DNA of 64,000 nt from Escherichia phage teqskov. Below are positions 19,617-55,517 of the stretch, piece by piece. The stretch lies in sequence record NC_054934.1. One strand, written 5' to 3'. How positions within the stretch are numbered: the stretch's first letter is position 1; every line of letters starts with the position of its first letter. A program made the translations under genes and the position numbers. The notes under the pieces were generated by a model that ran no database searches, had not been told where the DNA came from, and saw only the letters and a program-made list of their open reading frames with translations.

Positions 19617-19632
19617 AAAATTTCACAAAACA

Positions 19633-19662
19633 GTTTACATACCACAAGGACCGTGGTACTAT
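19633..19662 (+). promoter_or_regulatory. early promoter
   Basis: GTTTAC -35, 18-bp spacer, TGGTACTAT; shares downstream leader with promoters at 23272 and 39649. Confidence 0.6.
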
Positions 19663-19696
19663 ACAACTATCAACTGATACGGATTTGGAGAATAAA

Positions 19697-20145: not shown

Positions 20146-20175
20146 GTTTACAAGACTGTTCCTCTGTGGTACTAT
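20146..20175 (+). promoter_or_regulatory. early promoter
   Basis: GTTTAC -35, 18-bp spacer, TGGTACTAT; spacer is complementary to the downstream SD (CTGTTCCTC / GAGGAACAG). Confidence 0.55.
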
Positions 20176-20203
20176 TACCCTATCAACTACGGAGGAACAG
20201 AAA

Positions 20204-23068: not shown

Positions 23069-23214
23069 GTCCATTCATAGGTATTACAAGCGCTGCATTA
23101 GTATCCGGTAGCATTTTACTGGCGGGTTTAGGTGTTGTTCCAGCCGTAGCAGGAGGTCTTCTTGCGTTCGGCATTCAACGTGTTATCATGACAGTTATCA
23201 CAGTCATGCAGTAA
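23065..23214 (+). CDS. small membrane peptide (49 aa)
   Basis: ATGA overlap with gp52 stop; Gly/Ala-rich hydrophobic sequence; followed by strong terminator. Confidence 0.45.
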   Translation: MSPFIGITSAALVSGSILLAGLGVVPAVAGGLLAFGIQRVIMTVITVMQ

Positions 23215-23219
23215 TTTTA

Positions 23220-23247
23220 GGGAGAGCCGAGGCTCTCCCTTTTTTTA
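23220..23247 (+). terminator. rho-independent terminator
   Basis: GGGAGAGCCGAGGCTCTCCC followed by TTTTTTT. Confidence 0.8.
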
Positions 23248-23310
23248 TTTCAAAAATTTTTTCACAAAACGGTTTACAACCAAAGCATACTGTGGTACTA
23301 TACAACTATC
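23243..23310 (+). repeat. about 68-bp promoter cassette repeat, copy A
   Basis: Near-identical (1 indel, 1 mismatch) to 39621..39687. Confidence 0.8.
23272..23301 (+). promoter_or_regulatory. early promoter for motA
   Basis: A/T-rich upstream tract, GTTTAC -35, 18-bp spacer, TGTGGTACTAT. Confidence 0.65.
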
Positions 23311-23342
23311 AACTACTGATACAGAATTACGGAGATTAGAAA

Positions 23343-23978
23343 ATGTCTAAAGTAACTTACATCATCAAAGCTTCTAACGATGTTCTGAATGAAAAAACCG
23401 CTGCGATTTTAATTACCATTGCTAAGAAAGATTTCATTACAGCTGCAGAAGTTCGTGAGGTGCATCCAGATTTAGGTAACGCAGTAGTTAATAGTAATAT
23501 TGGGGTATTAATTAAAAAAGGCCTGGTAGAGAAATCAGGTGATGGATTAATCATCACGGGTGAAGCACAAGATATTATTTCAAATGCAGCAACTTTATAT
23601 GCACAGGAAAATGCTCCAGAACTTCTGAAAAAACGAGCAACTCGTAAAGCTCGTGAGATTACTTCTGATATGGAAGAAGATAAAGACCTCATGTTAAAAC
23701 TTTTAGATGAAAATGGATTTGTTCTTAAAAAGGTTGAAACTTATCGTAGTAATTATCTTGCCATTTTAGAAAAACGTACTCATGGAATTCGCAATTTTGA
23801 AATTAACAACAATGGAAATATGCGAATTTTTGGATACAAAATGATGGAACATCATATTCAGAAATTTACTGATATCGGAATGTCATGTAAAATCGCTAAA
23901 AACGGTAATGTGTATCTTGACATTAAACGCTCAGCAGAAAACATTGAAGCAGTAATCACTGTAGCATCTGAACTGTGA
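23343..23978 (+). CDS. motA: middle transcription activator MotA
   Basis: 211 aa (T4 MotA length); sequence recognised. Confidence 0.88.
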   Translation: MSKVTYIIKASNDVLNEKTAAILITIAKKDFITAAEVREVHPDLGNAVVNSNIGVLIKKGLVEKSGDGLIITGEAQDIISNAATLYAQENAPELLKKRATRKAREITSDMEEDKDLMLKLLDENGFVLKKVETYRSNYLAILEKRTHGIRNFEINNNGNMRIFGYKMMEHHIQKFTDIGMSCKIAKNGNVYLDIKRSAENIEAVITVASEL

Positions 23979-23988
23979 GGAATAAATA

Positions 23989-24318
23989 ATGAACAAGTTA
24001 GAAATTGTTAATGAACTTCGTCGTTGTGCAGAACCTACACAAGAGGGTTGGGACATCTGGTATCATGGAGCTTATCTTGGAACTATCGTAAAGATTAAGA
24101 CTGGTAAATACATGATTATTCGTGAAAGTAAAGATGCTCCAGTAGGTATTCGTAATAATTTTATGGCAGCGATAAGTTCATTTACGGATGCAGCTTACGA
24201 AATTTACCTTGCTGATTATAAAGAATTCCAGGAATCTCAACCGGTTATTCGTTCAATTGGTGTTAACAGAGCTCAGCAGAAAACTTTGTGGCAACGTATT
24301 AAAGGATGGTTTAAATGA
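23989..24318 (+). CDS. hypothetical protein (109 aa)
   Basis: ATG with GAGGAATAAA RBS. Confidence 0.5.
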
Positions 24319-24776
24319 ACCCATTTATCAATCGTTTAAAAATGCTGAATGTTCCTTTATCTCGTGAAACTCCAGAAAGTCTTGTTGAAAAATTTAAAAC
24401 GCATGGTTATAAATGCACAGAAGAAGATATTCTGAAAGAAGTTCCTGAAATCTGTTGGCAGACTGCGTACTGGGATGAAAACCAAAAGTATCAACGACGA
24501 ATTGTCTGTGCAGCCAACCGTTTTAAATTAAAAGATGGACGAACTCTTATTATTCCAGGTGCTCGTCATTATTCTAAAGATATGGCAGAAGTTTTAGATG
24601 TAGTTAAACCTCAATTAGTTACTCAACAAGTTTGTGATGATGACCAAGGGTTTATTGACCAATACAGTAATTATTGGACACGTGAAGAAGCAATGATTAT
24701 TGCAACTTACGCTGGACAAGTACGTATTGAACGTGGTGGTAGTGAAAAAGAACTTTACTCTGAGGACCTTTACTAA
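24315..24776 (+). CDS. hypothetical protein (153 aa)
   Basis: ATGA overlap with previous gene. Confidence 0.5.
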
Positions 24777-25072
24777 TGAATATTAAAAAGTTTCAAATCG
24801 ATGGAATTATGAATCAAATCCAGGCACTGGAATATGCCAATAAAATGATGTCAACTAATTGGGGAATTTATGCGAATGAGCCGGCATTTAAATTTTGTGA
24901 TATGGAATTTGCCAAAAAGCTTGTAGGAAAAGATTATGTATGTCCATTTAGTTCTCCAGTAAATGGAATGCTAAAACCTGCTTTACGCGATCTTTATATT
25001 GCGATGAACGAAGAAATGATAAAAGAATTAAAACGTCAACTGAAGGTGATTCAATTTGGCCAGGGAAATTAA
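24776..25072 (+). CDS. hypothetical protein (98 aa)
   Basis: TAATG overlap with previous gene. Confidence 0.5.
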   Translation: MNIKKFQIDGIMNQIQALEYANKMMSTNWGIYANEPAFKFCDMEFAKKLVGKDYVCPFSSPVNGMLKPALRDLYIAMNEEMIKELKRQLKVIQFGQGN

Positions 25073-25357
25073 TTCAAAATCTGATTATTTTAATTCTCTC
25101 AATGATAAAGATAAAAATCTAATACGGCATTTTATTGTTGAGATGGGATATACCGATACACGCGATTTAAGAGAACATATATTTGAATGTGGTGTAGCTA
25201 AAAAGTTTTCATTCACATGCAAATGTTTAAAAGAGGTAATTCAGCATTATGAACAATTTAGTCGCAAAACATAATTTTAATAAAGCTTCTGTTCATAAGG
25301 ATAAGAAGAAAGCGTTTAAAGAATCTAATCGCAAACAGAAACATAAGGGGAAGGTCT

Positions 25358-25636
25358 ATGATTATTGATTCTCAGTCTGTGGTTCAATACACAATCAAAA
25401 TTGATATTCTAGAAAAGCTATATAAGTTTCTACCAAATTTATACCACTCAATTGTTAATGAATTAGTTGAAGAACTGCATCTTGAGAATAATGATTTCTT
25501 GATTGGAACTTATAAAGACCTCTCAAAAGCCGGATATTTCTACGTAATTCCAGCTCCAGGAAAAAGTATTGATGATGTATTAAAAACTATAATGATTTAT
25601 GTCCATGATTATGAAATTGAAGATTATTTCGAATGA
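25358..25636 (+). CDS. acidic 92-aa protein, Arn-like anti-restriction candidate
   Basis: 92 aa (T4 Arn length), strongly acidic, located upstream of asiA; identity not verifiable. Confidence 0.45.
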   Translation: MIIDSQSVVQYTIKIDILEKLYKFLPNLYHSIVNELVEELHLENNDFLIGTYKDLSKAGYFYVIPAPGKSIDDVLKTIMIYVHDYEIEDYFE

Positions 25637-25785
25637 GTTATAATCTTGAAAAAGTAATCGAGCATAATGTAGCTCAGGAGCGTAAGTCGTTCAAGGAATT
25701 CGTAGAAAAAATTTTTGAAGAAAATAACACAGACCAGTTTACAAATCAAGCGTCTGATGATATTATAACAAAGTCAACTAATTGA
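25633..25785 (+). CDS. hypothetical protein (50 aa)
   Basis: ATGA overlap with previous stop; below ORF-track cutoff. Confidence 0.35.
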   Translation: MSYNLEKVIEHNVAQERKSFKEFVEKIFEENNTDQFTNQASDDIITKSTN

Positions 25786-25797
25786 GTGGTATAGTTA

Positions 25798-26070
25798 ATG
25801 AATAAAAACATTGATACAGTTCGTGAAATTATTACTGTTGCGTCTATTTTGATTAAATTTTTCAGAGAAGATATTGTTGAAAATCGTGCTAATTTTATTG
25901 CATTTCTGAATGAGATTGGAGTAACGCATGAAGGTAGAAAATTAAATCAGAATTCATTCCGTAAAATTGTTTCTGAATTAACTCAAGAAGATAAGAAAAC
26001 CCTCATCGACGAATTCAACGAGGGTTTTGAGGGTGTATATCGATATCTAGAGATGTATACGAACAAATAA
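25798..26070 (+). CDS. asiA: anti-sigma70 factor AsiA
   Basis: 90 aa; MNKNIDTVREIITVASILIKF... recognised as T4 AsiA. Confidence 0.9.
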   Translation: MNKNIDTVREIITVASILIKFFREDIVENRANFIAFLNEIGVTHEGRKLNQNSFRKIVSELTQEDKKTLIDEFNEGFEGVYRYLEMYTNK

Positions 26071-26727
26071 TTATTTAGCCCTTCCTAATATTCTGGCCGC
26101 CTGAGCACATATTGATTCAAGGCGGTCATTACTTATATGATCATTTCTATACCAGTACATTGTTATTGTTCCAGCATAGATATTATCCAAATTAAAATAT
26201 GGACAACTATACATGTAGTTTATTTCGGGAGTAGGCTTTTTAGTTGGTAAAAAAGCAAATTTTGAGTCAGAATAATAATGACGTCCATTTAAATGAACTG
26301 TATATTCATCCATAGTTTTATCAACAGGATATCCTCCAAGTGATTTTTCAGTTATTGTTGAAGGTAATCTTCCTTCGTATGCTATAATATCAACAAAATA
26401 GTTTAAGTTTTTAGGGCGGAAAGAATACACCGCACTAAAGTCTGCCTCAGATGATATATGAACTATCTGGAGTTGTTCCAGGGCGACAGATTCAAAGCGT
26501 GCATTTCTTTCCTTTTCAATAATTTCACTGTATGTTTCATACTTTGATTGCTTATAGTACTCAAAGAAACTATCTCCCCTATACCAAACAATCGCCATCA
26601 TAAATAAAAGAATTACGACAGCTACCCGGGAAGCAAGAACCTTCCCAGTAGCGTTATCTTTGAACAAGCGATCTAGAACACCAAACAGAATATCAGAGGG
26701 CGAAAATGATATTCTAGGTGCTGCCAT
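26071..26727 (-). CDS. t: holin T
   Basis: 218 aa (T4 holin length); N-terminal TM segment; downstream of gene 38. Confidence 0.88.
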   Translation of the reverse strand: MAAPRISFSPSDILFGVLDRLFKDNATGKVLASRVAVVILLFMMAIVWYRGDSFFEYYKQSKYETYSEIIEKERNARFESVALEQLQIVHISSEADFSAVYSFRPKNLNYFVDIIAYEGRLPSTITEKSLGGYPVDKTMDEYTVHLNGRHYYSDSKFAFLPTKKPTPEINYMYSCPYFNLDNIYAGTITMYWYRNDHISNDRLESICAQAARILGRAK

Positions 26728-26744
26728 AGACCCTCCTTTTAAGA

Positions 26745-26752
26745 TATTTATA
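26745..26752 (-). promoter_or_regulatory. late promoter (TATAAATA) for t
   Basis: TATAAATA on minus strand inside the 3' end of gene 38, about 18 nt before t start. Confidence 0.5.
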
Positions 26753-27299
26753 CGTAATGCTTGAATAAACGCTTATACCAAGGTTTCCGTTCTTTTTCAG
26801 GCCATGAAGGGAATTCACCACCTAAATGCTCATGCTTTTCTAAAAGAGCAAAGAACCGCTTAAGGTTTTTATAATAAAATTTTTCCTTTTTATTGGCGAC
26901 AGAAGCTTCAATCATATTATTTAAAACTTGGAACTCTTTATATAATTCTTCAATTTTTCTATTACGAATTAAAACTCGCTTATATGTTTCGTCTTCTTTC
27001 CAACCGTCATCAGTCCATATATCAAATTCGCCAGGCTCATCAAAAGTTATACCAACCGGGCTTCCAATTTCACTTATAAAAATTTCTTCTTTATTAAAAG
27101 TCCATGCTCGTTTTCCGCGATGGTCTTCTTCATAAATCCAATCCTGAGTACGTTCATCAAATACAACTGCATATCCTTCTTTAGGTTCTAAAGGTTTTTT
27201 AATTGTTGAATGAGCAGGAAGACCGAGGCCTTTAACCGGTTTGTAATTTTCTTCTTTGTAAAATTCTTTAGTGTCAAAATAATAATGATATATTTTCAT
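26748..27299 (-). CDS. 38: gp38 tail-fibre assembly chaperone (T4-type)
   Basis: 183 aa (T4 gp38 length); downstream of gene 37. Confidence 0.8.
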   Translation of the reverse strand: MKIYHYYFDTKEFYKEENYKPVKGLGLPAHSTIKKPLEPKEGYAVVFDERTQDWIYEEDHRGKRAWTFNKEEIFISEIGSPVGITFDEPGEFDIWTDDGWKEDETYKRVLIRNRKIEELYKEFQVLNNMIEASVANKKEKFYYKNLKRFFALLEKHEHLGGEFPSWPEKERKPWYKRLFKHYV

Positions 27300-27326
27300 A
27301 TTTAGAAGGGGCCGAAGCCCCTCTCC

Positions 27327-30300
27327 TTATGCTAAACGAACGATATAGTTAAAAGCAATGTTTTTAACCGTGTTTTCTGTATTACCTGTACTATTTACAG
27401 TGATAGTATGACCATGCGAGCCAATTGCTACCGTGTGGGTATGAGCACCGATACCTACAGTATGGGTATGAGCACCAATACCTACTGTGTGAGCATGGTT
27501 ACCTGTAGTGCTTGTAGTACCAGACCAAGTATGAGTATGAGCACCGTCTGAAGAAGTTTTGGCTATATTCGACCCTGCAGTAGCACCGTTCACGGTTCCA
27601 GTGAATTTAGCGTTGGCGTTTGCACCTACACTATTATATCCGTCATAGAATATGTTATTGGGTATGCCGGCTTGTATCTGAGGACCTGAGCGCGCATGTT
27701 GGTGTGCACCAGCAAAACTCGTAGTACCGCTTACAATATGAGAGTGGTTACCTGTGGTATTGCTAGTCTTAGTGCCATAGTCAAAGCTACTTGTCGTCTT
27801 AGTACCATAATCAAAACTCGACGTAGTTTTAGTACCCAAGTCAGTACTTGAAGCCGATGCACTATGGCTATGAGCCTTAACACCATCGGCTTCTGCGCTT
27901 AATACAGCTCGACCACTTGGTTTACCTTTAATAGTTTGCCCGCGCATATCTGGAATTACGCCAGATGGGTAAGCCATAGCCAATTTTGGGTATGCAGACT
28001 TATCAAAAGTCTGGCCTTCCATAATAGCGTAACCGTCAGGAGGAGTATCCGTTGGCCATGGAATAGGAGCACCGATTGGGTAACTCGATACAATATCGGT
28101 TTTAAGTGATTCAATTGTACTGTTTAAATTAGCAAAATTGCCAGAACCACCTGTAATATTGCCGTCTGTACCTAAATAAACTGAACCACCAGCAGAAACA
28201 CGCTTAGGAGATATAAAATCACCATTTTTGTTAAATTCCCAACCTAAATCCTTTATAATAGCGCCAGTCGAACCGCCATCGCCGCCTTCATGATAATGAA
28301 CTCTGAAGTTACCGCCGTTAATTAGAGTTCCCAGAGAATAACAACTGTTTCCTTGGACATATCGTTGTTTCAAAATAGGAACGTAAGTACTTGTATCTGT
28401 ACGATTAATATTCATATAGAATGGAGCACGAACGTTTTCATTATTTTGTGAAGCAAAAGAACCGGCTCCAGCAGGACGCACAGCGTCAGTACATTCAGCA
28501 TCAATATAAGCTGATTGTCCTAATTGCATTCTGAAATTAGCATTAACACGAGAGTGGCTGTTAATTGCAACACGAGCAGCTGAAGTATCCACAGCAAACA
28601 ATCCATTCGTTCTTACTGTATTCCCCACAGAAAGAGAATGATGCATTTGCACAAATCCGTTTGAAAGATCAATACTTAATGGGCGAAGATTACTTATTCC
28701 ACCATTTTCCCCTGCATCTTTAAGTGTAGGAATAATATGCAATGATGTTTCTGAACGACGGAAAATGGCTCCATATTCAGCGTTCCATATTCTAAAAGCA
28801 TCAGCTGTATTAGCATTAGATATTTTTAGCGGTCCTTTAATATTAGCAGAATCTGCTATAACTGCCCCAGATAAAGTAATATTACCTAATCCATTGATAT
28901 GACCGGTTTCTACAGTACCATTAAATTTAAAATTAATAGGACCTACTGTTTGACCGGATGCAGGGGTAGTACGTTGAGCATAAAAGTAGTATCCTTGCGA
29001 ATCAGAAACTTCAAATACAGTATGTCTATCAGTTCCACCACTTGTATTAAATGAATTTCCCCATGCTTTTAAAATTACTGTATTTTTGTTTTGACCTGCA
29101 CGAGTACCAGCATCCCAATTAAGAGTTTTAGTTCCATCTATACTGCTAGAAGCTTTAAACGATATACCGTTGTTATTTCCATCAGAAGATAAAAATATAC
29201 CATTCTGCAATGAAAGACGCTGAGTAGATGAAATTCCGCCATCAGCTCTAATAGAAACAGTATTTGAACCAGTTTTAATATCTAAAATTCCAGGCTCAAC
29301 AATAAGACCTTCAGCCATTCCAACAGCCATTCGGCCTCTGCCTCTAAAATAATGATAAAACTTGCTGTTACTATTATATCCAATATGAGTTTGACCATCA
29401 CCGTTATTATTTTGATCAATATCTGTACGAACTGAAAGAAGAGCAGCGTTTTGACCAGGAAGAAGCCATGTACCGCCTTGGTCTTCAGAACGTCCAAAAA
29501 TTGCTTTACGGGTACTACGAAAACTGTCGGGAGTGATAGAAGCAACAGATAAACCACTACCAACTAAGTCATAAACTCCTGTCTTTTTATAAGCTAGTCC
29601 AGTTGACGCATCTCCAAGAACAATGTATTTTTCTCCCATTGCTCCAGCAGATCCATAGTTATTTACGTTTTCATCTGTAGTAATTGTGCCAATAGCAAGT
29701 GAACGACGTAATACCATTGCACCATCATTACGAAGACCCATTTGTTTATTAACGGCTGTATTTCCAGTCCACCACGAAATTTCATCGCTTTTTCCACTTT
29801 GAGCTGAAGCTATTTCATGATAAATTGTACCACCTGATTTTGCGCGAACTTTACGAAGATAGTTTATACCGTTTGTTTCGCCAGTGCCAGGATAAACATA
29901 CTGAACTAATGACTGCGAATCATATTGTCCAAATGCTTTTGTATCTAAAACAATGGTTTTTGTATTAATTTGAGGAGCTGAAACAACCCCTGATGCCGAA
30001 TTAATATTGCCTGAAGCAGATATGTTTCCAGCAGTAACAGTTAAACTACCACTATCAACAACAAAACCACCATCACGTCGGAAAGTCCAATATTTTGAAG
30101 TGCCAGTTTCATCGATATAGTGTATCTTCATTGAGCCTTCAGAAACTAAAGTCCCTAATGAAAACGTTCCATCTTTATAACGTTGTTTAATTAGCGGATG
30201 ATATTCAGAAGTTGAAGTAGTTGAACTCAAATCGGTGAAAATTGGAGCTTTATTTGTGTGCTGATTTGCCCAAGCACCATTTCCAGCAGTTTTTGGCAAG

Positions 30301-30569
30301 AATTCAATATACTTTCCTGCATAAACAAACTGATTTCCATTAAGATTATACGTGCCGTTTTGTAAATAATCACCATTTTGAGTAATATTTCCACTAATGT
30401 TACCACCGGCAGAAATGCTTAAATCAATAATATTTCCCGAGTCATCTTTAGTAAAAAGAGTACGGTCTTTTAAGTTTATAGCCAATTCACCTTCGGCTAA
30501 TACTGAAGCAGCAGGGCGTTGACCTGCAGTTTTGCTTCTTTTAAATTGTATTTGTTTTAAAGTAGCCAT
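27327..30569 (-). CDS. 37: gp37 long tail fibre distal subunit
   Basis: 1080 aa; C-terminal His-x-His tandem repeats ([16 protein letters not shown]...), SSFDYGTKT repeats; synteny 34-35-36-37-38. Confidence 0.88.
27395..27500 (-). repeat. tandem repeats about 27 nt encoding the HxH(T)V boxes of the gp37 tip
   Basis: Three to four near-identical units encoding VGIGAHTHT. Confidence 0.6.
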
Positions 30570-30577
30570 AAGTCCTC

Positions 30578-31243
30578 TTAATAATAGCCGAAATCTTGAA
30601 CAGAATCCTTAATAACAATTTGATCAAATCGTGGAACATGTGAAGGTTGAGACGCTGGATTCTGTGAGAAAAAGTTTGGAGCTGTTAAATTTCCAGTCAT
30701 AGTATCGCCTCTACGCAATACACGTGAATTTGCGTTATCCGTAACAATATTTATTGCTCCATCAACATAATCTTTTCTTGTGAGATCATTTGCTGCAACT
30801 GGAGCAGTCATATCGCTTCTTACTTGTCCTGAAGCAGATACAACGCCTTTTGTGCTAATATCACCATTACGTGCATTAATTACTACAGTTCTACCTGCAG
30901 ATCCTTGTGATGATTTAAAACCAATTCCATACCATGAAACAATATCAATATTTGCTGTAGCAAAAGTAGCAGCATCACCATTACCAGGAAAAATACCGCT
31001 TTGGTTTGTATTGTTTATAGCATATGGTATTTGCACGCCACCGTTAAATGTTACCTTTGAAGCGTAAGTACCACCATTAGCTTTAGAAACGAAATCGTTA
31101 TCAGCTGCTTGTGGTTTATTATATTCTGTATATATTTTAAATGATTTATAGAGTACATCGTCACCGGCTGGATTCAATGGAAAATTTCCTTGATGCCAAA
31201 TGACAGAGCCTCCAGTTGTTGAACCTACTTTTAAATCAGCCAT
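30578..31243 (-). CDS. 36: gp36 long tail fibre distal connector
   Basis: 221 aa (T4 gp36 length); own late promoter upstream. Confidence 0.85.
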
Positions 31244-31266
31244 TGTATGCCCCTTTATTTTAATAG

Positions 31267-31274
31267 TATTTATA
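31267..31274 (-). promoter_or_regulatory. late promoter (TATAAATA) for gene 36
   Basis: TATAAATA on minus strand about 24 nt upstream of gene 36 ATG. Confidence 0.55.
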
Positions 31275-31305
31275 AAGAAAAAGGGAACCCGAAGGCTCCC
31301 TCAAT
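31275..31305 (-). terminator. rho-independent terminator after gene 35
   Basis: Minus-strand GGGAGCCUUCGGGUUCCC hairpin (UUCG loop, one G-U pair) followed by UUUUUC. Confidence 0.5.
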
Positions 31306-32421
31306 TTAAACTTCTCTAAATTCTTGCCCAAACACTTTACCAGTTTTAGACGATGCTTGCGTAGGAAGTACCATTATATCCGGAGGTGAAGCAGATTCAC
31401 AGACATAATTAACTCTAATACCGTTAACACCAAACTCAGCGGGTTTTGAAATTCCACCATTTCTTGATACTTCAGAAAAGCTTAAATTTCGCATGCCGCC
31501 TTGTCCTGCTTGAGCAGTTCTCTGCGCATATATCGTAAATCCTACAGCGTTTTCTGGAACAACTACATAATCTTCCTTTAATTCCCAAGACCCAGCCTGT
31601 CCAGTAAACTCAGCCTGTGTTGAAGAAATATATCCGTTTGATGAATTATAAAAACGAATGGATATATTTGTAGTTCCAAGAGCGAGTAAATCAGCATCAG
31701 CATATAGTTGCGCTTTAAGATAAAGAACATCGCCAGGAATTAAATTGTAGTCAGATAGTTTACTTATCGCGGATGAAGTCGGTAAACGCGCAATTTCGTT
31801 ATTAGTTCCACCAACAGCTGACATAAATTGCTCAACGCTTTCGTATGTTCTTTTAGGAAATCCTGTCGCTCCAACATCTTCTAAACTATCAAATACTACA
31901 TCTAATACAGTTTGATAATCATCTGTGCTTTTTCTGTTACTTAATTTAACATGTTCTAATGCGATAGCTCTTTTAGAAGAAGTGTAAAAAGCAGCATATG
32001 ATACATCAAATCTCGACAATATAGAGTCAGATGGAAAAGCAGACGTTCCTGCTGTTCTTAACCAAGATACTACTTCAGGAGGAAAATTAACCTTTCCGTT
32101 AGTTAATATAGCAACAAGTCTATTGCTTGAAAAAGAATTCATGAAACTAACAAAAGCAGCAGATGTAGTATCATTTGAAGTAGAAAAAGCATATGACTTA
32201 CTATCAACTAATGCTCCTGTAGAAGGGTCAAAAACTCTTAAATGAAGACCTGCGCTAAATGTTTGACTTCCTGCAGGATTATCCTGAAATTTAACATATG
32301 GTCCTGCGGTAGAAAGCGGGCAAGAACCCGCTATGCTTATTTTGTATCTTACTGAATTGCTTTCCGATAAAAATGGCGTTTGAACATATCCTTGTCCAAA
32401 CTCTGCCATAAATTTTTCCAT
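31306..32421 (-). CDS. 35: gp35 tail fibre hinge protein
   Basis: 371 aa (T4 gp35 372 aa); between 34 and 36. Confidence 0.85.
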   Translation of the reverse strand: MEKFMAEFGQGYVQTPFLSESNSVRYKISIAGSCPLSTAGPYVKFQDNPAGSQTFSAGLHLRVFDPSTGALVDSKSYAFSTSNDTTSAAFVSFMNSFSSNRLVAILTNGKVNFPPEVVSWLRTAGTSAFPSDSILSRFDVSYAAFYTSSKRAIALEHVKLSNRKSTDDYQTVLDVVFDSLEDVGATGFPKRTYESVEQFMSAVGGTNNEIARLPTSSAISKLSDYNLIPGDVLYLKAQLYADADLLALGTTNISIRFYNSSNGYISSTQAEFTGQAGSWELKEDYVVVPENAVGFTIYAQRTAQAGQGGMRNLSFSEVSRNGGISKPAEFGVNGIRVNYVCESASPPDIMVLPTQASSKTGKVFGQEFREV

Positions 32422-32429
32422 AATACCTC

Positions 32430-35400
32430 TTATTCAACCCATTCAAATTTAACAGTTTTATTCACTGGGTCAGGAACAATGCGAACATTACCAATTCGCA
32501 AGAAATCACGAATAGTAAGATTCCCCATTGTAGCATTATCAGATGGTAAAGCACCGATATCAGATGGTTGAGGAGGGTTACCTCCGTCAAATACCTGAAC
32601 AAAACTTGACCAAGAGTTTTTGGTTTTCTGCCATGTACGTGTCCAACGAGTGGTACGCGCTTCTGGTGTCGTTGGATAAGTAATCCAATCTTGGTAAAGC
32701 GAATCAAGTGTGTTACCAAACTGAGTCAGTGTACCAGGAGATTTAACTTCTTCGCCACGTTCTAAGTATGGAAGCCCAGTCACTTCATTAGTTTTTTCAA
32801 CCATTTTAAAATAACCCGGGAACTGGTTATAAGTAGCTGAATCGTTAATATCAATTGACCAGAATCCTACCGTATCAGATGTTGGCGCACGGGTATATAA
32901 ATCAGATGTTTTAGTACCCTGAGAACGAATTCTCGAGTTAACAGTCAAACCACCTGAATTTATAGTAGCACCTTTAGCAATGATTAAGCTTTCACCGATC
33001 GTTACTTGACCAGATGCATTGTTAATAGCTAAAGGACGTAATCCATTAAATCCGCCAGTCTGATCACCCGATGCAGTAAGCATAAAATAGGTGTTAGCAG
33101 CATCATTGCGAATAAAGAACCCATAATCACCGTTTATTGCTCTAAAAGCATTTGCAGACTTGCTGATGAATTCACCATTGGCTGTAACTGAACTACCAAA
33201 TGTTGCAACGCCATTCGCATTTAAAGAACCCGAAGCATTAATGTTTATTGGCATTACAGTACCATTGATACTAAACGTTATATTCCCAGCTTTATTACGT
33301 TGAGAATAAAAGTGATTAGACGTTTCATCACCAACTTCAAATACAGTAGAACGTGTTGTATCTGAACCGCCGCCAAACTGATTTCCCCAAACTCTGATAG
33401 TCATCGTCTGTGCTGGGTTAGTTCCAGTTTGAGGTCCTTTCTCAAAAATCAGACGAGTTGCTGTTCCAGTATTAGAAATAGTTAATGTACTATTTGCCGA
33501 AACTGAACCACCAAACGTAGCAGTACTAGATGATACAAGAGGGGCACTCAGATTCGTTTGTTGGGTTAAGGTTAGTGAACCATTAACCGTCTGTGCAATA
33601 TCCCTACGAATGAACTGAGATGAATCTAGACCATCCAATAAATTACTATCTGCAGCTTTTGCTTTTAACGGTAAATAATTTGCTAATACACGGTTTAATT
33701 CATATGGTGATATTGCATAGCTATTTTTCTCATACAGTTCTAAATCTTGGGTAGAACCGACTGTATCATTACCAACGAACGTAATTGAACCAGATGAAGT
33801 TTTAACAAAACCTCTTACCGCAGTAGTAGCTGCCCAGGTAGGTTCACTCTGCACAATCCATTTTAAATTTTTTGGAGATACAGCAGTATTTGCTGATGCT
33901 CCAGTCACAGTTTCAGACTGAGTTGCAACTTTAATAACACCTTCCTGTGATTCGGTAGATTTAGTACCTAAAAGCTTTTTAGGAGTTATTAAAACATTAT
34001 CTAATGTTCCTGCAGCAGCTTCAACTTGTGTAGCTACACGAAGTGTACCACGTTGTGTCTCATTTGCTTCAAGAATATTAAGGGTATAATGGTCCCAGAG
34101 AGTTCCTGATTCAACTAATCCAGATAGAGCAACAACAGAAGTACGATCAGTACTATTAAATCTGGTTTTAATTTTTAATGGTGTAGAGATACGAGTATCG
34201 TCGACGCCTGCGTCGAATTCAACTTGTGTGGCAATTTCAGCTATACCACTTAAACTTTCAGTTGCTCTACGGTCATTTAAAGTTTTAGGAGTGACTGCAC
34301 GAGTATAATCAGTTCCTGTATTAACTTCACTTTGCGTAGCAATTTCAATTAAACCAATTCTTCCATCAGTTGATGTCTTTTTATGTAACGTTTCTGGAGT
34401 TACAACTGCATTTGCCCATCCTTCTTGACTCTGTCCAGCAATTACTTCACTTTCAACTGCTAAAATTACTGCACCTTGCTGTGTTGGAGTAGCTTTATAC
34501 TGATCCAAGGCTTTAGGTGAAACAACTAAGTTATTAGTGTTTTTATTATAAACATTTGTACCATTTAATTCACGGCTAGAAGCTGGAGTAGCACCTGCAG
34601 TAGATACAAAAGTTACAATACCAGATAATGACTCAGAACCCTGGCGGGCTTGAAGCTTTTTAGGAGTAATGATGGTTGTATCATCTGTTCCTGTGTTTGT
34701 TTCTTGCTGCGTAGCAATTTCAGCGACACCCCTACGAGTTTCTGTAGCAGTTCTTTCATTCAACTTTTTAGGAGTGATGATAAGGTCATCTGCAAAAGAG
34801 AATGTGGTATCCTGGTTTACTTGCGCAGTTGTTGCTATTCTTGCAATACCTCTACGAGTTTCTGTAGCAGTACGATTAGCTAACGTTTCTGGAGTAATTG
34901 CCAATTCTTTTTGTGGAGAATTTTCTAGATCAGCATTAGCTTGAGCCTGTGTAGCTAAAGCAATTACGCCTAATCTTGCTCTAGTAGAATTATTTAAAGA
35001 GTCTACTCTTTCTACAGTTGGAACGTTTTGCTGTACAACCCAATATTTTCCATCGGAATCTTCGATATAAGCAAGCTGTAAAACTGGAACATAATTGGTT
35101 TCGCCATTAAAAACTAATTCTTGAACAGTCACCCATTTAGTTTCAGGTGGGTATTCTGAACGTTTTGGAAATTGCAGCAATTGAACTGAAGAAGCAATTT
35201 TATCTTCACCGGCAGCTTTGATTTTAACTGTTTGTCCTTTTCTCATATAATTCATGGAAATCTTAACAGTATCACCGATAGAAATATCAGTTGGAAGCTG
35301 AAGCTCAATTGTTTGAGTTGTTCCGTTATTCGCACCAAATACCATGACTTCTTCATTTGGACGAATATTAGAATTAGTTGTTATAATACGTAAACGTGCT

Positions 35401-36299
35401 TTACTATCCCCGTCAAACAATCTCCACAATTTCTCATTATCATCAAACATCAAGAAACCGTCAATCGATGTACGGCCTTCAATGGAATGAGTTCCAACTT
35501 CTTGTACTGAAGTCGTTTCATCGTATGTAGTAACAATTGTATGATAAAGTGGATTCAGTTTATCTAAATCGACAAAATTAATAATATCGCCATGATTAGC
35601 AAATCTTGGAAGTTTAACATTAATTGGTGCAGCAGAAGTAAATCTACGTACGATAAAATCATTAGATTGCGCCTGATAGAGACTTGCTGGTGTTACAATT
35701 ACCGCTTCTCTACTATAATCAGCTACATACATTTGCCACAGACGATTACTAAAAATTAAAACTAGCTGTGACTTTGGATGAGTCATTAGTACTGAACGTA
35801 CTTGTTCACCTCTAAAGTTTACAATACTTTGCACTGGAGCTACAATTAAAACTTGGTTAACTCCGGGTTTTCCTCCAATATCTTGGAGAACGATAGTATC
35901 ACCATCAATTGGAGTAGATGGTAAAGTAAATGTGATGTCATTTCCAGCTGCAGTATTAACCGAAATTGCTTCGCCAGATTTTAATTGATATGAACCAGAT
36001 GAAACCGTAATCCAGTTAGCATCTGTACGTAATGCTCTCCAGCGTCCGCTATTAAAAGCTCCTGCCGGTTTTGGAATATCATTTATAGCAGCCCAAAAGC
36101 GGTTATCATAAATGATTACAAAATCTTTTAAATATCCACGAGTTGGGTCATATTGCTGAACTGTGTTTTCTTGAATTAAGTAATCAACGTTAACACCGTC
36201 AGTTCCTACGGTACGATCAGCTAAAGCTACGTTGATTATTTTATCGCCACCTGCGTCCAGACCATCTTCTGCTCTGAACTTTCTTTTAATCTCGGCCAT
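32430..36299 (-). CDS. 34: gp34 long tail fibre proximal subunit
   Basis: 1289 aa (T4 gp34 length); internal ATETRRG...ITPKKL repeats. Confidence 0.9.
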   Translation of the reverse strand: MAEIKRKFRAEDGLDAGGDKIINVALADRTVGTDGVNVDYLIQENTVQQYDPTRGYLKDFVIIYDNRFWAAINDIPKPAGAFNSGRWRALRTDANWITVSSGSYQLKSGEAISVNTAAGNDITFTLPSTPIDGDTIVLQDIGGKPGVNQVLIVAPVQSIVNFRGEQVRSVLMTHPKSQLVLIFSNRLWQMYVADYSREAVIVTPASLYQAQSNDFIVRRFTSAAPINVKLPRFANHGDIINFVDLDKLNPLYHTIVTTYDETTSVQEVGTHSIEGRTSIDGFLMFDDNEKLWRLFDGDSKARLRIITTNSNIRPNEEVMVFGANNGTTQTIELQLPTDISIGDTVKISMNYMRKGQTVKIKAAGEDKIASSVQLLQFPKRSEYPPETKWVTVQELVFNGETNYVPVLQLAYIEDSDGKYWVVQQNVPTVERVDSLNNSTRARLGVIALATQAQANADLENSPQKELAITPETLANRTATETRRGIARIATTAQVNQDTTFSFADDLIITPKKLNERTATETRRGVAEIATQQETNTGTDDTTIITPKKLQARQGSESLSGIVTFVSTAGATPASSRELNGTNVYNKNTNNLVVSPKALDQYKATPTQQGAVILAVESEVIAGQSQEGWANAVVTPETLHKKTSTDGRIGLIEIATQSEVNTGTDYTRAVTPKTLNDRRATESLSGIAEIATQVEFDAGVDDTRISTPLKIKTRFNSTDRTSVVALSGLVESGTLWDHYTLNILEANETQRGTLRVATQVEAAAGTLDNVLITPKKLLGTKSTESQEGVIKVATQSETVTGASANTAVSPKNLKWIVQSEPTWAATTAVRGFVKTSSGSITFVGNDTVGSTQDLELYEKNSYAISPYELNRVLANYLPLKAKAADSNLLDGLDSSQFIRRDIAQTVNGSLTLTQQTNLSAPLVSSSTATFGGSVSANSTLTISNTGTATRLIFEKGPQTGTNPAQTMTIRVWGNQFGGGSDTTRSTVFEVGDETSNHFYSQRNKAGNITFSINGTVMPININASGSLNANGVATFGSSVTANGEFISKSANAFRAINGDYGFFIRNDAANTYFMLTASGDQTGGFNGLRPLAINNASGQVTIGESLIIAKGATINSGGLTVNSRIRSQGTKTSDLYTRAPTSDTVGFWSIDINDSATYNQFPGYFKMVEKTNEVTGLPYLERGEEVKSPGTLTQFGNTLDSLYQDWITYPTTPEARTTRWTRTWQKTKNSWSSFVQVFDGGNPPQPSDIGALPSDNATMGNLTIRDFLRIGNVRIVPDPVNKTVKFEWVE
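34730..34870 (-). repeat. intragenic direct repeats in gene 34
   Basis: ACGAGTTTCTGTAGCAGT recurs about 120 bp apart, encoding repeated TETRRG...ITPKKL units. Confidence 0.6.
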
Positions 36300-36333
36300 T
36301 CTCCCGGGCTCCTATTGTGTTTTCAATAATAAG

Positions 36334-36341
36334 TATTTATA
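36334..36341 (-). promoter_or_regulatory. late promoter (TATAAATA) for gene 34
   Basis: TATAAATA on minus strand about 35 nt upstream of gene 34 ATG. Confidence 0.6.
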
Positions 36342-36344
36342 CTT

Positions 36345-36374
36345 GTTTACTTTAAGATTTGGATGGTATATAAT
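36345..36374 (+). promoter_or_regulatory. early promoter for rnh
   Basis: GTTTAC -35, 18-bp spacer, TGGTATATAAT; divergent from and adjacent to the gene 34 late promoter. Confidence 0.6.
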
Positions 36375-36403
36375 AGAAATCTCACTAATTGAACGAGGTT
36401 CAT

Positions 36404-37321
36404 ATGGATTTAGAAATGATGCTGGATGAAGATTACAAAGAAGGAATTTGCTTTATTGACTTTAGTCAAATTGCGCTTTCAACTGCTTTGGTAAACTTCC
36501 CAGATAAAGAAAAAATTAATTTATCAATGGTTCGTCATTTGATATTGAACTCAATTAAGTTTAATGTCAAAAAAGCAAAAGCTCTTGGATACACTAAAAT
36601 TGTATTGTGTATTGATAACGCGAAATCTGGATACTGGCGTCGTGATTTCGCTTATTATTATAAGAAAAACCGTGGAAAAGCACGAGAAGAATCTACTTGG
36701 GACTGGGAAGGTTATTTTGAATCCAGCCATAAAGTTATAGATGAATTGAAAGCTTATATGCCATACATTGTTATGGATATTGATAAGTATGAAGCGGATG
36801 ACCACATTGCTGTTCTTGTTAAAAAGTTCTCTTTAGAAGGACATAAGATTTTAATCATTTCGTCGGATGGTGACTTTACTCAACTTCACAAATATCCAAA
36901 TGTTAAGCAATGGTCACCGATGCATAAGAAATGGGTTAAAATTAAAAGCGGTTCTGCTGAAATTGACTGTATGACTAAAATCCTTAAAGGCGATAAAAAG
37001 GATAACGTTGCTTCAGTTAAAGTACGATCTGACTTTTGGTTTACCAAAGTTGAAGGTGAACGAACTCCTTCAATGAAAACTTCAATCGTTGAAGCTATTG
37101 CTAATGACCGTGAGCAAGCTAAGGTGCTTCTCACAGAATCTGAATATAATCGTTATAAAGAAAATCTAGTTCTAATTGATTTTGATTATATTCCTGATAA
37201 TATTGCTTCAAACATTGTGAATTACTATAATTCATATAAATTACCACCGCGTGGCAAAATTTATTCATATTTTGTAAAAGCGGGTCTTTCTAAATTAACT
37301 AATAGCATTAATGAATTTTGA
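36404..37321 (+). CDS. rnh: RNase H (5'-3' exonuclease / flap endonuclease)
   Basis: 305 aa from ATG 36404 (MDLEMMLDEDYKEG...), recognised as T4 RNase H. Confidence 0.92.
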   Translation: MDLEMMLDEDYKEGICFIDFSQIALSTALVNFPDKEKINLSMVRHLILNSIKFNVKKAKALGYTKIVLCIDNAKSGYWRRDFAYYYKKNRGKAREESTWDWEGYFESSHKVIDELKAYMPYIVMDIDKYEADDHIAVLVKKFSLEGHKILIISSDGDFTQLHKYPNVKQWSPMHKKWVKIKSGSAEIDCMTKILKGDKKDNVASVKVRSDFWFTKVEGERTPSMKTSIVEAIANDREQAKVLLTESEYNRYKENLVLIDFDYIPDNIASNIVNYYNSYKLPPRGKIYSYFVKAGLSKLTNSINEF

Positions 37322-37329
37322 GGTGAATA

Positions 37330-37599
37330 ATGGCTAAAAAAGAAATGGTTGAATTTGATGAAGCTATCCACGGCGAAGACTTGGCTAAATTTATTAAAGA
37401 AGCATCTGATCATAAACTGAAAATTTCCGGTTATAATGAACTGATTAAAGATATTCGAATTCGTGCTAAAGATGAACTTGGCGTTGATGGTAAGATGTTT
37501 AATCGTCTATTAGCTTTGTATCATAAAGATAACCGTGATGTGTTTGAAGCTGAAACTGAAGAGGTAGTTGAACTTTATGACACAGTTTTCTCTAAATGA
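37330..37599 (+). CDS. dsbA: DsbA double-stranded DNA binding protein
   Basis: 89 aa (T4 DsbA length); synteny rnh-dsbA-33-59-32. Confidence 0.8.
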   Translation: MAKKEMVEFDEAIHGEDLAKFIKEASDHKLKISGYNELIKDIRIRAKDELGVDGKMFNRLLALYHKDNRDVFEAETEEVVELYDTVFSK

Positions 37600-37915
37600 T
37601 ATTCGTCCGGTCGATGAGACCGGTCTTTCAGAAAAAGAACTTTCAATCAAGAAAGAAAAGGATGAAATAGCAAAGCTTCTTGATCGTCAAGAAAATGGAT
37701 TTATTATTGAAAAAATGGTAGAAGAGTTTGGAATGAGTTATCTTGAAGCTACGACAGCATTCTTGGAAGAAAACTCTATTCCTGAAACTCAATTTGCTAA
37801 ATTTATTCCTTCGGGTATAATTGAAAAAATTCAGTCAGAAGCTATTGACGAAAATCTTTTACGTCCTTCTGTTGTTCGTTGTGAAAAAACTAATACATTA
37901 GATTTTCTACTATGA
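37577..37915 (+). CDS. 33: gp33 late transcription co-activator
   Basis: 112 aa from ATG 37577 (T4 gp33 length); synteny. Confidence 0.8.
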   Translation: MTQFSLNDIRPVDETGLSEKELSIKKEKDEIAKLLDRQENGFIIEKMVEEFGMSYLEATTAFLEENSIPETQFAKFIPSGIIEKIQSEAIDENLLRPSVVRCEKTNTLDFLL

Positions 37916-38565
37916 TTAAACTCCGCATGCCTGCTGGTGGTGAAAGATACATTGATGGTAAATCAGTTTATAAATTATACTTAATGATAAAACAACATAT
38001 GAATGGAAAGTATGATGTTATTAAGTATAATTGGTGCATGCGGGTGTCTGATGCCGCTTATCAAAAGCGAAGGGATAAGTATTTTTTCCAGAAGTTATCA
38101 GAAAAATATAAATTAAAGGAACTTGCTTTAATCTTTATAAGCAATCTGGTTGCTAACCAAGATGCTTGGATTGGTGACATCTCTGACGCTGATGCACTTG
38201 TGTTTTATCGTGAATATATCGGACGCTTAAAGCAAATTAAATTTAAGTTTGAAGAAGATATTCGCAACATTTATTATTTTAGTAAAAAAGTTGAAGTTTC
38301 TGCTTTTAAAGAAATCTTTGAGTATAATCCAAAAGTTCAATCAAGTTATATTTTTAAACTACTTCAATCGAATATAATTTCGTTTGAGACGTTTATCTTG
38401 CTTGATTCGTTTTTAAATATAATTAATAAACATGATGAACAGACTGATAATTTAGTCTGGAATAATTATTCTATAAAGTTAAAGGCTTATAGAAAAATTT
38501 TAAATATTGATTCACAGAAAGCTAAAAGTGTTTTCATTGAAACTGTGAAATCTTGTAAGTATTAA
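37912..38565 (+). CDS. 59: gp59 helicase loader
   Basis: 217 aa (T4 gp59 length); immediately upstream of gene 32. Confidence 0.85.
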   Translation: MIKLRMPAGGERYIDGKSVYKLYLMIKQHMNGKYDVIKYNWCMRVSDAAYQKRRDKYFFQKLSEKYKLKELALIFISNLVANQDAWIGDISDADALVFYREYIGRLKQIKFKFEEDIRNIYYFSKKVEVSAFKEIFEYNPKVQSSYIFKLLQSNIISFETFILLDSFLNIINKHDEQTDNLVWNNYSIKLKAYRKILNIDSQKAKSVFIETVKSCKY

Positions 38566-38590
38566 TTGCTTATTATAAATAGATTATAAT
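38566..38590 (+). promoter_or_regulatory. gene 32 promoter region (MotA box TTGCTTA, TATAAATA, TATAAT)
   Basis: MotA-box-like TTGCTTA, a TATAAATA late element at 38574..38581 and a TATAAT within 25 bp. Confidence 0.45.
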
Positions 38591-38664
38591 TATCTCACTG
38601 ACCAGCTATGAGGTCATACATCGTCATAGCACCAACTGTTAATTAAATTAAAAAGGAAATAAAA

Positions 38665-39573
38665 ATGTTTAAACGTAAATCTACTGCTGAACTCGCTGCA
38701 CAAATGGCTAAACTGGCTGGAAATAAAGGTGGTTTTTCTTCTGAAGATAAAGGCGAGTGGAAACTGAAACTCGACAATGCGGGTAACGGTCAAGCAGTAA
38801 TTCGTTTTCTTCCGTCTAAAAATGATGAACAAGCACCGTTCGCAATTCTTGTAAATCACGGTTTCAAGAAAAATGGTAAATGGTATATTGAAAACTGTTC
38901 ATCTACCCACGGTGATTACGATTCTTGTCCAGTATGTCAGTACATCAATAAAAATGATTTGTACAACACTGACAATAAAGAATACGGTCTTGTTAAACGT
39001 AAAACTTCTTACTGGGCTAACATTCTTGTTGTAAAAGACCCAGCTGCTCCAGAAAATGAAGGTAAAGTATTTAAATACCGTTTCGGTAAGAAAATCTGGG
39101 ATAAAATCAATGCAATGATTGCAGTTGATGTTGAAATGGGTGAAACTCCGGTTGATGTAACTTGTCCGTGGGAAGGTGCTAACTTTGTACTGAAAGTTAA
39201 ACAAGTTTCTGGTTTTAGTAACTACGACGAATCTAAATTCCTGAATCAATCTGCGATTCCAAACATTGATGATGAATCTTTCCAGAAAGAACTGTTCGAA
39301 CAAATGGTTGACCTTTCTGAAATGACTTCTAAAGATAAATTCAAATCGTTTGAAGAACTGAGCACTAAGTTCAGTCAAGTTATGGGAACTGCTGCTATGG
39401 GTGGTGCCGCAGCAACTGCTGCTAAGAAAGCCGATAAAGTTGCTGATGATTTGGATGCATTCAATGTTGATGACTTCAAAACAAAAACTGAAGATGATTT
39501 TATGAGCTCAAGCTCTGGCAGTTCATCTAGTGCTGATGACACGGACCTGGATGACCTTTTGAATGACCTTTAA
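38665..39573 (+). CDS. 32: gp32 single-stranded DNA binding protein
   Basis: 302 aa; zinc-binding Cys/His region, acidic Ser-rich C-terminus; sequence recognised. Confidence 0.95.
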
Positions 39574-39595
39574 TAGATTATATTACTAATTAATT

Positions 39596-39624
39596 GGGGA
39601 CCCTAGAGGTCCCCTTTTTTTTTT
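39596..39624 (+). terminator. rho-independent terminator
   Basis: GGGGACCCTAGAGGTCCCC followed by a 10-nt T-tract. Confidence 0.85.
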
Positions 39625-39687
39625 ATTTCAAAAATTTTTCACAGAACGGTTTACAACCAAAGCATACTGTGGTACTATACAACTATC
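39621..39687 (+). repeat. about 68-bp promoter cassette repeat, copy B
   Basis: Near-identical to 23243..23310. Confidence 0.8.
39649..39678 (+). promoter_or_regulatory. early promoter
   Basis: GTTTAC -35, 18-bp spacer, TGTGGTACTAT. Confidence 0.65.
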
Positions 39688-39721
39688 GGCAATACTGCTG
39701 ATGATTAAAGAGGAAAACAAT

Positions 39722-39952
39722 ATGGCTAAAGTTGATATTGACATCGTTGATTTTGAATATATTGAAGAAATTATTCGTAATCGTTATCCTGAACTTAGTA
39801 TCACAAGTATTCATGATGATCCCAATTATTGCAATTTTTCTATTGTTATTGAAGGTCCTTTAGAAGTTCTTGAACGATTTATGGCTAATGAATACTGTGA
39901 TGGTATGGATGCTGAAGATGCAGAATTTTACATGGGATTGATTGAACAGTAA
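39722..39952 (+). CDS. hypothetical acidic protein (76 aa)
   Basis: ATG at 39722 with AAAGAGGAAAA RBS. Confidence 0.5.
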
Positions 39953-39958
39953 TTATCG

Positions 39959-39975
39959 AGGGGCTATCAAGCCCC
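39959..39975 (+). terminator. possible hairpin (weak terminator)
   Basis: GGGGCTATCAAGCCCC stem-loop, poor T-tract. Confidence 0.35.
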
Positions 39976-39996
39976 TATTAAAATGAGGAAAACACA

Positions 39997-40359: not shown

Positions 40360-40389
40360 TTTACAGAAGGGTAGTAGTGTGATACTATT
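40359..40389 (+). promoter_or_regulatory. early promoter
   Basis: GTTTAC -35 overlapping upstream stop, 19-bp spacer, TGTGATACTAT. Confidence 0.55.
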
Positions 40390-40413
40390 ACCCTATCAAC
40401 TAAGGAGAATAAA

Positions 40414-40656: not shown

Positions 40657-40666
40657 GGAAAATATT

Positions 40667-55513: not shown

Positions 55514-55517
55514 GTTA

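Follow-up and report, generated by a model that had tools for sequence, protein, structure and literature searches.

Escherichia phage teqskov (NC_054934.1) carries two almost identical terminator-promoter cassettes that lie 16.4 kb apart, cassette A in front of motA and cassette B in front of frd.3. The window, by which we mean the whole 64,000-nucleotide (nt) stretch of this genome that was analysed, is Tequatrovirus (T4-like) DNA with 97-99.8% identity to Tequatrovirus genomes. The two promoters have one and the same spacer, and this is probably the result of short ectopic gene conversion, from the motA promoter to the frd.3 promoter, within a dispersed family of such cassettes. Regulatory cassettes such as these two are already known, and the pattern of spacer swapping in the phage population is a modestly new detail.

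In a global alignment, positions 23243-23310 (68 nt, cassette A) and 39621-39687 (67 nt, cassette B) differ only twice, by one indel and one mismatch, exactly as the first-pass annotation had stated. The indel is in the length of a T-run (TTTTTT versus TTTTT before CACA), and the mismatch is A/G (CACAAAAC versus CACAGAAC). The alignment contains an exact match of 39 nt, GTTTACAACCAAAGCATACTGTGGTACTATACAACTATC (from GTTTAC to CTATC), which occurs in the window exactly two times, at 23272 and 39649. A repeat search of the window extended the pair to 82 nt at 87% identity and placed both copies in a wider family of eight promoter-like copies. This family includes the more diverged third copy that had been reported at 19621, and over 19621-19675 it is indeed 82% identical to cassette A.

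Is the common spacer only a consensus feature? This would be so if all early promoters shared it, which the earlier annotation had itself named as the finding that would overturn its view. The early-gene strand of the window has 12 strong early-promoter matches, and we compared all 66 pairs among them. Spacer identity averaged 6.3 of 17 nt (standard deviation 2.5), with 17 of 17 for the A/B pair and 11 of 17 for the next best pair. The 30 nt upstream and the first 20 nt downstream were also most alike for A/B and for a few other pairs (19633/23272 and 20146/40359). All other early promoters of the window have spacers unrelated to the one that A and B share, which is therefore no consensus feature; the family has a common backbone with locus-specific spacers.

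The frd.3 cassette, in some cases together with the motA cassette, was taken from 18 isolate genomes and 3 IMG/VR contigs and aligned. The scan of IMG/VR for the frd.3-type leader gave only these three loci, too small a number for a study of the population, which then used the GenBank phage collection. At frd.3 a constant UP/-35 backbone and a constant -10/leader enclose a spacer that falls into four discrete groups, given here as 18 nt, that is the last -35 base plus the 17-nt spacer. Allele M (AACCAAAGCATACTGTGG) is identical to the spacer of the motA promoter; it is present at frd.3 of the window, bov9_1, N2, JE01 and RB14, and also of PinkRuby, vb_GEC_SH_GT and F13076, which are independently sequenced isolates. 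The T4-type allele (AAGCATAAAGCTTTATGG), found in T4T and slur03, matches the nrdC.10 promoter of wV7 and of many other phages at 41 of 41 nt including the backbone. Allele D (ATACCACAAGGACTGTGG) occurs in SH7, with a diverged form in ECp13, and agrees at 17 of 18 nt with the ndd.6 promoter downstream of denB (cassette C). Finally, allele K (ATCCYTGTYCTTCCATGG) is the same as the spacer of the e.8 promoter of RB59 and occupies frd.3 of KMB22, teqdroes, RB27, T2, PST, AR1, SG1, BMB16, CHD2BS1 and the three IMG/VR contigs.

Among the 18 aligned genomes, nucleotide diversity was 0.41 in the 17-nt spacer of frd.3. The values around it were 0.023 (200 nt upstream), 0.056 (UP/-35 region) and 0.029 (first 100 nt downstream). 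No other site of the cassette family is as polymorphic. Replacement is thus confined to a sharply delimited island, and every allele there recurs, exactly or almost exactly, at another place in genomes of the same kind; this is the signature of patch transfer between paralogues and not of point mutation. Allele frequencies were estimated by BLAST with 56-nt allele-specific queries, reading rows at even ranking steps, over some 500-600 Tequatrovirus records. Allele K was found at frd.3 in about 330 records, the T4-type allele in about 65-75 and allele D in about 45-90. Allele M, the one in the window, is the rarest, with about 26-38 records (about 6%), in line with the 28 records that reach 95% identity or more over the full 95 nt of cassette B.

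The match might also be put down to chance, convergence or an assembly artefact, since promoters are A/T-rich and consensus-driven; we could count nothing else for it. However, the 39-nt match was never obtained in 100 dinucleotide-preserving shuffles, and allele M stands at frd.3 of all the independent isolates listed above, which leaves this explanation hardly credible. The first-pass annotation had spoken of recent duplication or gene conversion. The second part of this proposal is supported, given that the four frd.3 alleles are the spacers of other promoters. The first part is not, because both cassettes lie at the same two loci in every Tequatrovirus examined (the cassette upstream of motA is present also in T4T, KMB22, bov9_1, N2, JE01 and slur03) and the new part is only the spacer patch of 15-17 nt.

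The motA site is much more uniform, with the M spacer in almost all records. The spacer of the motA cassette was the same in every genome that we first read, apart from one point change in JE01, and 409 of 540 records were at least 95% identical to the window over 131 nt. Exceptions appeared when the least similar cassette hits were fetched. In Kha5h there are two point changes. The motA promoter of EC128 is without GGTACTATACAACTAT and so has lost its entire -10 together with the first part of the leader, through either a real deletion of an early promoter or an assembly error. In fFiEco06 the cassette after motA.1 has the nrdC.10/T4-type spacer (AAGCATAAAGCTTTATGG) in place of the motA spacer, and therefore conversion is not restricted to frd.3. 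Given these three phages, the idea that the motA spacer is fixed had to be weakened to nearly constant.

Another kind of change at this site is represented by D5505 (1501-1970; window 23310-23343), where an open reading frame (ORF) of 75 amino acids (aa) and a second, different early promoter are inserted between cassette A and motA. The insertion, a classical event of the PeSL (promoter-early stem-loop) type, lies directly 3′ of the -10/leader, and both leaders share CTATCAAATAAATGAACTGAAAC. The BLAST ranking of the motA cassette suggests that about a quarter of the records diverge from the window at this point. Thus the recombinant junctions that the first-pass annotation had advised seeking at these cassettes in natural isolates do exist, as spacer patches at B and as the ORF insertion after A in D5505-type phages.

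The near constancy of the motA spacer can be read in another way. The cassettes could be ancient duplicates held identical by selection, with the spacer as a functional site, for example a binding site of a regulator common to motA and frd.3. AAGCA, which is complementary to the MotA-box core TGCTT, does occur in the M and T4-type spacers and is absent from the K and D spacers. But allele M is a minority at frd.3, and three unrelated spacers are found there in otherwise identical flanks, which is the opposite of purifying selection; the conservation of the motA spacer is also no higher than that of its surroundings, which are 97-99% identical. We consider selection for identity very improbable. 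A MotA-dependent promoter that would use the inverted TGCTT to read divergently, from the other strand, was looked for by eye and rejected, as no suitably spaced -10 was found.

How long is the transferred patch? Between the window and slur03, which has the T4-type allele, there are no differences from the -10 to about +400. On the 5′ side of the -10 the cassettes differ only by the spacer patch, the T-run lengths and G39644, and three further substitutions are in the aligned tail of gene 32. The converted tract would then be at least about 15 nt, and, if G39644 is older than the event, at most about 45 nt (39645-39687). Allele M was found on at least three frd.3 coding haplotypes (window/slur03-like, KMB22/bov9_1/RB14-like and N2/JE01-like), and therefore the spacer is unlinked from sequence 100-200 bp away. 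This could equally reflect repeated conversion, for which the donor is always present in the same genome, or the very high frequency with which co-infecting T-even phages recombine at allelic sites.

Sliding identity of the window to six relatives gave no abrupt breakpoint at A. On the 3′ side of B the identity to slur03 jumps to 99.6%, while that to M-type phages falls to 86-90%. This shift is no demonstration of a block exchange; what it shows is a lack of linkage between the spacer allele and the frd.3 haplotype. We also considered that the UP regions of A and B evolve in concert (ATTTC in both cassettes of the window, ATTTT in both of T4T), and gave this up, as the pattern is broken by KMB22 and slur03.

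We propose the following course of the gene conversion. The motA promoter would have donated, non-reciprocally, a patch of at least 15 and at most about 45 nt to the frd.3 promoter, either in the present lineage or earlier, in an ancestor. Homology for the transfer would be given by the shared backbone, with about 40 bp on the left side of the spacer and 17-20 bp on its right side. This should suffice for strand invasion or a template switch that occasionally enters a paralogous cassette and returns, copying the spacer only, and UvsX-type strand invasion, synthesis-dependent strand annealing and template switching are candidate molecular routes. The allele may then have spread by homologous recombination between co-infecting phages. 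The outcome of a crossover between the two cassettes would be a deletion or a duplication of 16.4 kb with asiA, the tail-fibre genes, 33, 59 and 32, so that probably only non-crossover products survive, which fits the unchanged gene order in seven long loci.

A different role of the pair would be as crossover substrates, with unequal recombination deleting or duplicating the 16.4-kb block or swapping it as a module. The first-pass annotation had the same in mind when it suggested that the repeats could mediate deletion of the late tail-fibre block or exchange of modules. A and B form a direct repeat of about 67 bp, the D5505-type phages have their ORF insertion at the right edge of cassette A, and in phages RB49 and phi1 recombination between promoter-early stem-loop (PeSL) motifs gives mini-circles and deletes the intervening DNA (PMC2839356). 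However, the PeSL events on record span about 1 to 4 small ORFs, not 16 kb. The A-B interval holds motA, asiA, t, 38, 37, 36, 35, 34, rnh, dsbA, 33, 59 and 32, several of them essential, and a phage with the block deleted would not be viable alone. Gene order is the same throughout the seven long loci examined, and none of them has an A/B chimera. A duplication of 16 kb would exceed the headful margin, that is the terminal redundancy, of T4. The genes that flank A and B are 95-100% identical between the phages compared, so exchange of the block needs no cassettes and is independent of these 68 bp. We regard a role of A and B in rearranging the block as unlikely, and neither part of the earlier suggestion was borne out.

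Could the conversion at frd.3 be targeted? Double-strand breaks made nearby by homing endonucleases may sometimes be repaired from a paralogous cassette, and frd.3 would then be a hot spot of conversion. Gene segG lies between genes 59 and 32, and SegG cleaves gene 32 (PMC2988022). In the window no segG homing-endonuclease gene was found between genes 59 and 32 (38565-38665, a 100-bp gap), unlike T4T and KMB22, which have an endonuclease gene there; the window genome would be a SegG cleavage target in mixed infections. The high polymorphism of frd.3 points the same way, as do segB, located 5′ of e.8, and the position of segB and mobD adjoining the e.8 and nrdC.10 cassettes. Yet all this is purely circumstantial. 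The motA site has no known endonuclease nearby and was also converted in fFiEco06, and endonuclease-driven co-conversion normally takes an allelic template, not an ectopic one. Targeting by breaks is thus a doubtful addition, which we would not favour.

It may further be speculated that spacer swapping is no neutral side effect of recombination but a selected, possibly break-targeted re-tuning of early genes. The spacers would carry information, and frd.3, standing beside the SegG site in gene 32, would be a hot spot that samples regulatory alleles. This information could concern sensitivity to the Alt/ModA-modified polymerase, early shut-off or, for the M and T4-type spacers, MotA binding via the inverted TGCTT. 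We give little credence to such re-tuning at present.

Several points weigh against ectopic conversion from motA to frd.3 as we have described it. The 18 genomes were chosen in strata of similarity to the window and are not a random sample, and the allele counts are extrapolated from evenly spaced BLAST rows. With only 17 nt, the right homology arm (GGTACTATACAACTATC) is short by the standards of canonical homologous recombination in T4, and therefore the molecular route is uncertain. The direction of transfer is deduced from allele frequencies only, and the alternative is that M was the original allele of frd.3 and the others came in later, which would still be transfer from promoter to promoter. 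Finally, promoter and terminator function in this phage is ascribed from the sequence and by reference to T4.

If conversion of this kind is accepted, T4-like regulatory cassettes can be seen as recombination substrates at the resolution of a single promoter. Non-crossover patches as short as 15-45 bp would move between promoters 16 to about 100 kb apart and leave the adjoining genes untouched. The PeSL concept, which concerns the shuffling of ORFs in hyperplastic regions, would then also cover the silent homogenisation and mosaicism of promoters next to core genes. That A and B are nearly identical is no evidence for a rearrangement-prone tail-fibre module, and the understanding of T4 transcription is unchanged by the finding. 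In practice, where Tequatrovirus genomes serve phage therapy, short promoter repeats of this sort can mislead assembly, the calling of recombination breakpoints and the design of primers.

The coordinates of the cassettes, their parts and the neighbouring genes are collected in Table 1.

Table 1. Predicted regulatory elements and coding sequences at and around the cassettes (positions in the window).
Feature	Position	Strand	Remarks
Intrinsic terminator after 52/motA.1	23219..23246	+	hairpin 23219-23240, T-tract 23240-23246
Cassette A, early promoter of motA	23243..23310	+	T-tract, A/T-rich UP-like region, promoter, start of leader
Cassette A -35, TTTACA	23273-23278	+	from sequence
Cassette A 17-nt spacer, ACCAAAGCATACTGTGG	23279-23295	+	ends in TGG (extended -10)
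Cassette A -10, TACTAT	23296-23301	+	from sequence
Shine-Dalgarno GGAG of motA	23332-23335	+	from sequence
motA coding sequence, 211 aa	23343..23978	+	served by cassette A; ORF and homologous gene annotated motA
Gene 32, single-stranded DNA-binding protein	38665..39573	+	own terminator is the left end of cassette B
Gene 32 intrinsic terminator	39596..39624	+	hairpin 39596-39614, T10 tract 39615-39624
Cassette B, early promoter of frd.3	39621..39687	+	T-tract, UP-like region, promoter, start of leader
Cassette B -35, TTTACA	39650-39655	+	from sequence
Cassette B 17-nt spacer, motA-type (M) allele	39656-39672	+	identical to that of A; from sequence
Cassette B -10, TACTAT	39673-39678	+	from sequence
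frd.3 coding sequence, 76 aa	39722..39952	+	served by cassette B; start inside ORF 39701-39952
Cassette C, early promoter after denB	19621..19680	+	serves ORF 19697-19960; 82% identity to A
Cassette C -35	19634-19639	+	from sequence
Cassette C -10	19657-19662	+	spacer TACCACAAGGACCGTGG
ndd.4-type promoter	20147..20175	+	-10 and leader TACTATTACCCTATCAACTA.GGAG; paralogous to the 40360 promoter
Promoter between frd.2 and frd.1	40360..40388	+	paralogous to the 20147 promoter

On the + strand the order is denB, the ndd genes, ac, 52, motA.1, cassette A, motA, the arn genes and asiA, according to the annotation of KMB22 and T4T and the list of ORFs. The late genes t, 38, 37, 36, 35 and 34 follow on the - strand, and after them rnh, dsbA, 33, 59, 32, cassette B, frd.3, frd.2, frd.1 and frd. 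So, cassette A is located between motA.1 and motA, and cassette B between gene 32 and frd.3, which is annotated under this name in T4T, RB27, PST, RB14 and AR1. For the region 22500-24500 identity is 99.8% with phage Ozark and 97-99% with hundreds of other phages; for 38900-40900 it reaches up to 98.7% (KAW1E185 and relatives).

By their anatomy, cassette A appears to combine the 52/motA.1 terminator with the early promoter of motA, and cassette B the gene 32 terminator with the early promoter of frd.3. Each would end the upstream transcription unit, an early or middle one, and restart early transcription for the next one (motA, or frd.3 to frd). Both predicted terminators are strong. That of A has a 9-bp stem (-19.4 kcal/mol, z = -4.3) and is annotated as a terminator in relatives, and in that of B a GC stem of 7 bp precedes the T10 tract. 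There is no sequence relationship between the two hairpins, and the repeat begins in the T-tract. An A/T-rich ATTTCAAAAATTTTTTCACAAAAC is found 5′ of the -35, and at their 3′ ends the cassettes lead to GGAG and the ATG at 23343 (motA) or to GAGG and the ATG at 39722 (frd.3). The promoter had earlier been parsed as GTTTAC with an 18-bp spacer, and a minor correction gives the conventional TTTACA, a 17-nt spacer with the TGG of an extended -10, and TACTAT.

Cassette C has the A/B-type backbone but a different spacer. No strong terminator hairpin was found 5′ of it, where there is only a weak fold (z = -1.8). The view that the copies are terminator-promoter cassettes is supported for A and B, each having a hairpin, a T-tract and a promoter, and does not extend to C. 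From their motifs, A, B and C can all be assigned to the family of strong T4 early promoters with UP, -35, TGn and -10 elements. A near-identical backbone is present at no fewer than five loci (ndd.6, motA, frd.3, nrdC.10 and e.8), the nrdC.10 and e.8 paralogues having been identified in relatives, and only the spacer and the distal leader are locus-specific.

The two further promoters of Table 1 are related in a similar way. Positions 20146-20200 and 40359-40410 agree at 18 of 20 nt in the -10/leader and have different spacers, and these promoters each lie one small ORF 3′ of cassettes C and B, respectively. As a separate observation, the promoter at 15371 (15369-15400) and the denB-downstream promoter (19633-19662) have a common spacer core, ACCACAAGGA, with an offset of 1 nt, which is another possible case of spacer sharing in the family.

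Other repeats were seen in the window. Direct repeats at 60454-61124 and 62548-63218, spaced by 2094 nt, are 70-73% identical and are probably paralogous genes 3′ of the DNA ligase region. In gene 37 (distal tail-fibre, - strand) there are three tandem units of 27 nt, about 70% identical, at 27414-27494. G+C hairpins with TTCG loops recur across the window and look like terminators. One pair, GGACTCCTTCGGGAGTCC at 2652-2688 and 55510-55546, is 92% identical, and further examples lie at 13481, 18994 and 60355 and at 18749, 18981 and 56422 (e.g., GGCCTTCGGGCC / GGGCTTCGGCCC). The hairpin at 2652 is followed by an early promoter at 2694 and may represent another PeSL-like unit.

Early promoters (Pe) of T4 have UP, -35, TGn and -10 elements together with extra consensus regions and are read by the unmodified host sigma-70 polymerase right after infection (Hinton 2010, PMC2988021). 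A and B have a recognisable UP, -35, TGn and -10 on the early-gene strand, 5′ of known early genes, and by analogy they may be active immediately after infection with the unmodified host polymerase. In T4T the motA and frd.3 cassettes are at the same loci with the same backbone as in the window. However, the frd.3 spacer of T4 itself is AAGCATAAAGCTTTATGG, so that A and B are not spacer-identical there, unlike in the window.

The PeSL is a composite motif of terminator and early promoter described in RB49 and phi1 (Arbiol et al. 2010, PMC2839356), and for the PST/T4 pair its promoter consensus was given as TTTACW-N17-TAYWAT (Comeau et al. 2014, PMC4122927). At the sequence level A and B have all the defining features. 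They share the stem-loop, the A/T-rich region, the sigma-70-type promoter with a 17-nt spacer, the Shine-Dalgarno sequence and the ATG. Their TTTACA-N17-TACTAT conforms to the consensus, as does the promoter of C (19634-19662), and the stem-loop stands directly 5′ of the promoter in A and B but not in C. Like PeSLs, the cassettes are similar intergenic elements present in many copies (here a family of eight, with 12 strong early-promoter matches), and they are linked to indels and ORF exchange in close relatives through the D5505 insertion at A and the four spacer alleles at B. There are also differences. The hairpins of A and B are G+C-rich, are probably true terminators and are not homologous to each other, and the two cassettes bracket core essential genes, unlike the published PeSL events. 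Recombination between PeSLs of RB49/phi1 was demonstrated by inverse PCR, which showed mini-circles with chimeric PeSLs (PMC2839356), whereas here chimeric cassettes are seen in genomes alone, as an evolutionary footprint. Such chimeras are what recombination among PeSL copies should produce. In the PeSL papers crossovers between neighbouring copies move small ORFs, and here a non-crossover replacement of 15-17 nt of spacer would have taken place between cassettes at least 16 kb apart. Spacer-only replacement between distant cassettes is described in neither PMC2839356 nor PMC4122927; the word "spacer" is in neither text, "gene conversion" is absent from the first, and "motA" and "frd" are absent from the second.

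Two other systems of T-even phages deserve comparison. Co-conversion by SegG resembles the proposed transfer in being a non-reciprocal transfer of a short tract during mixed infection, in the same gene 32/frd.3 neighbourhood. In contrast, SegG conversion is allelic and carries its own endonuclease gene, while the transfers suggested here would be ectopic and the window is without segG. At the internal-protein (IP) loci of T-even phages, the variable segments have conserved early-promoter/stem-loop sequences of the T4 type on their flanks, and these were proposed as recombination points (Repoila et al. 1994, as cited in PMC2839356 and PMC4122927). Going by these citing papers, the IP loci exchange whole genes, whereas at frd.3 only the internal spacer of a promoter is exchanged and the genes on both sides stay unchanged.

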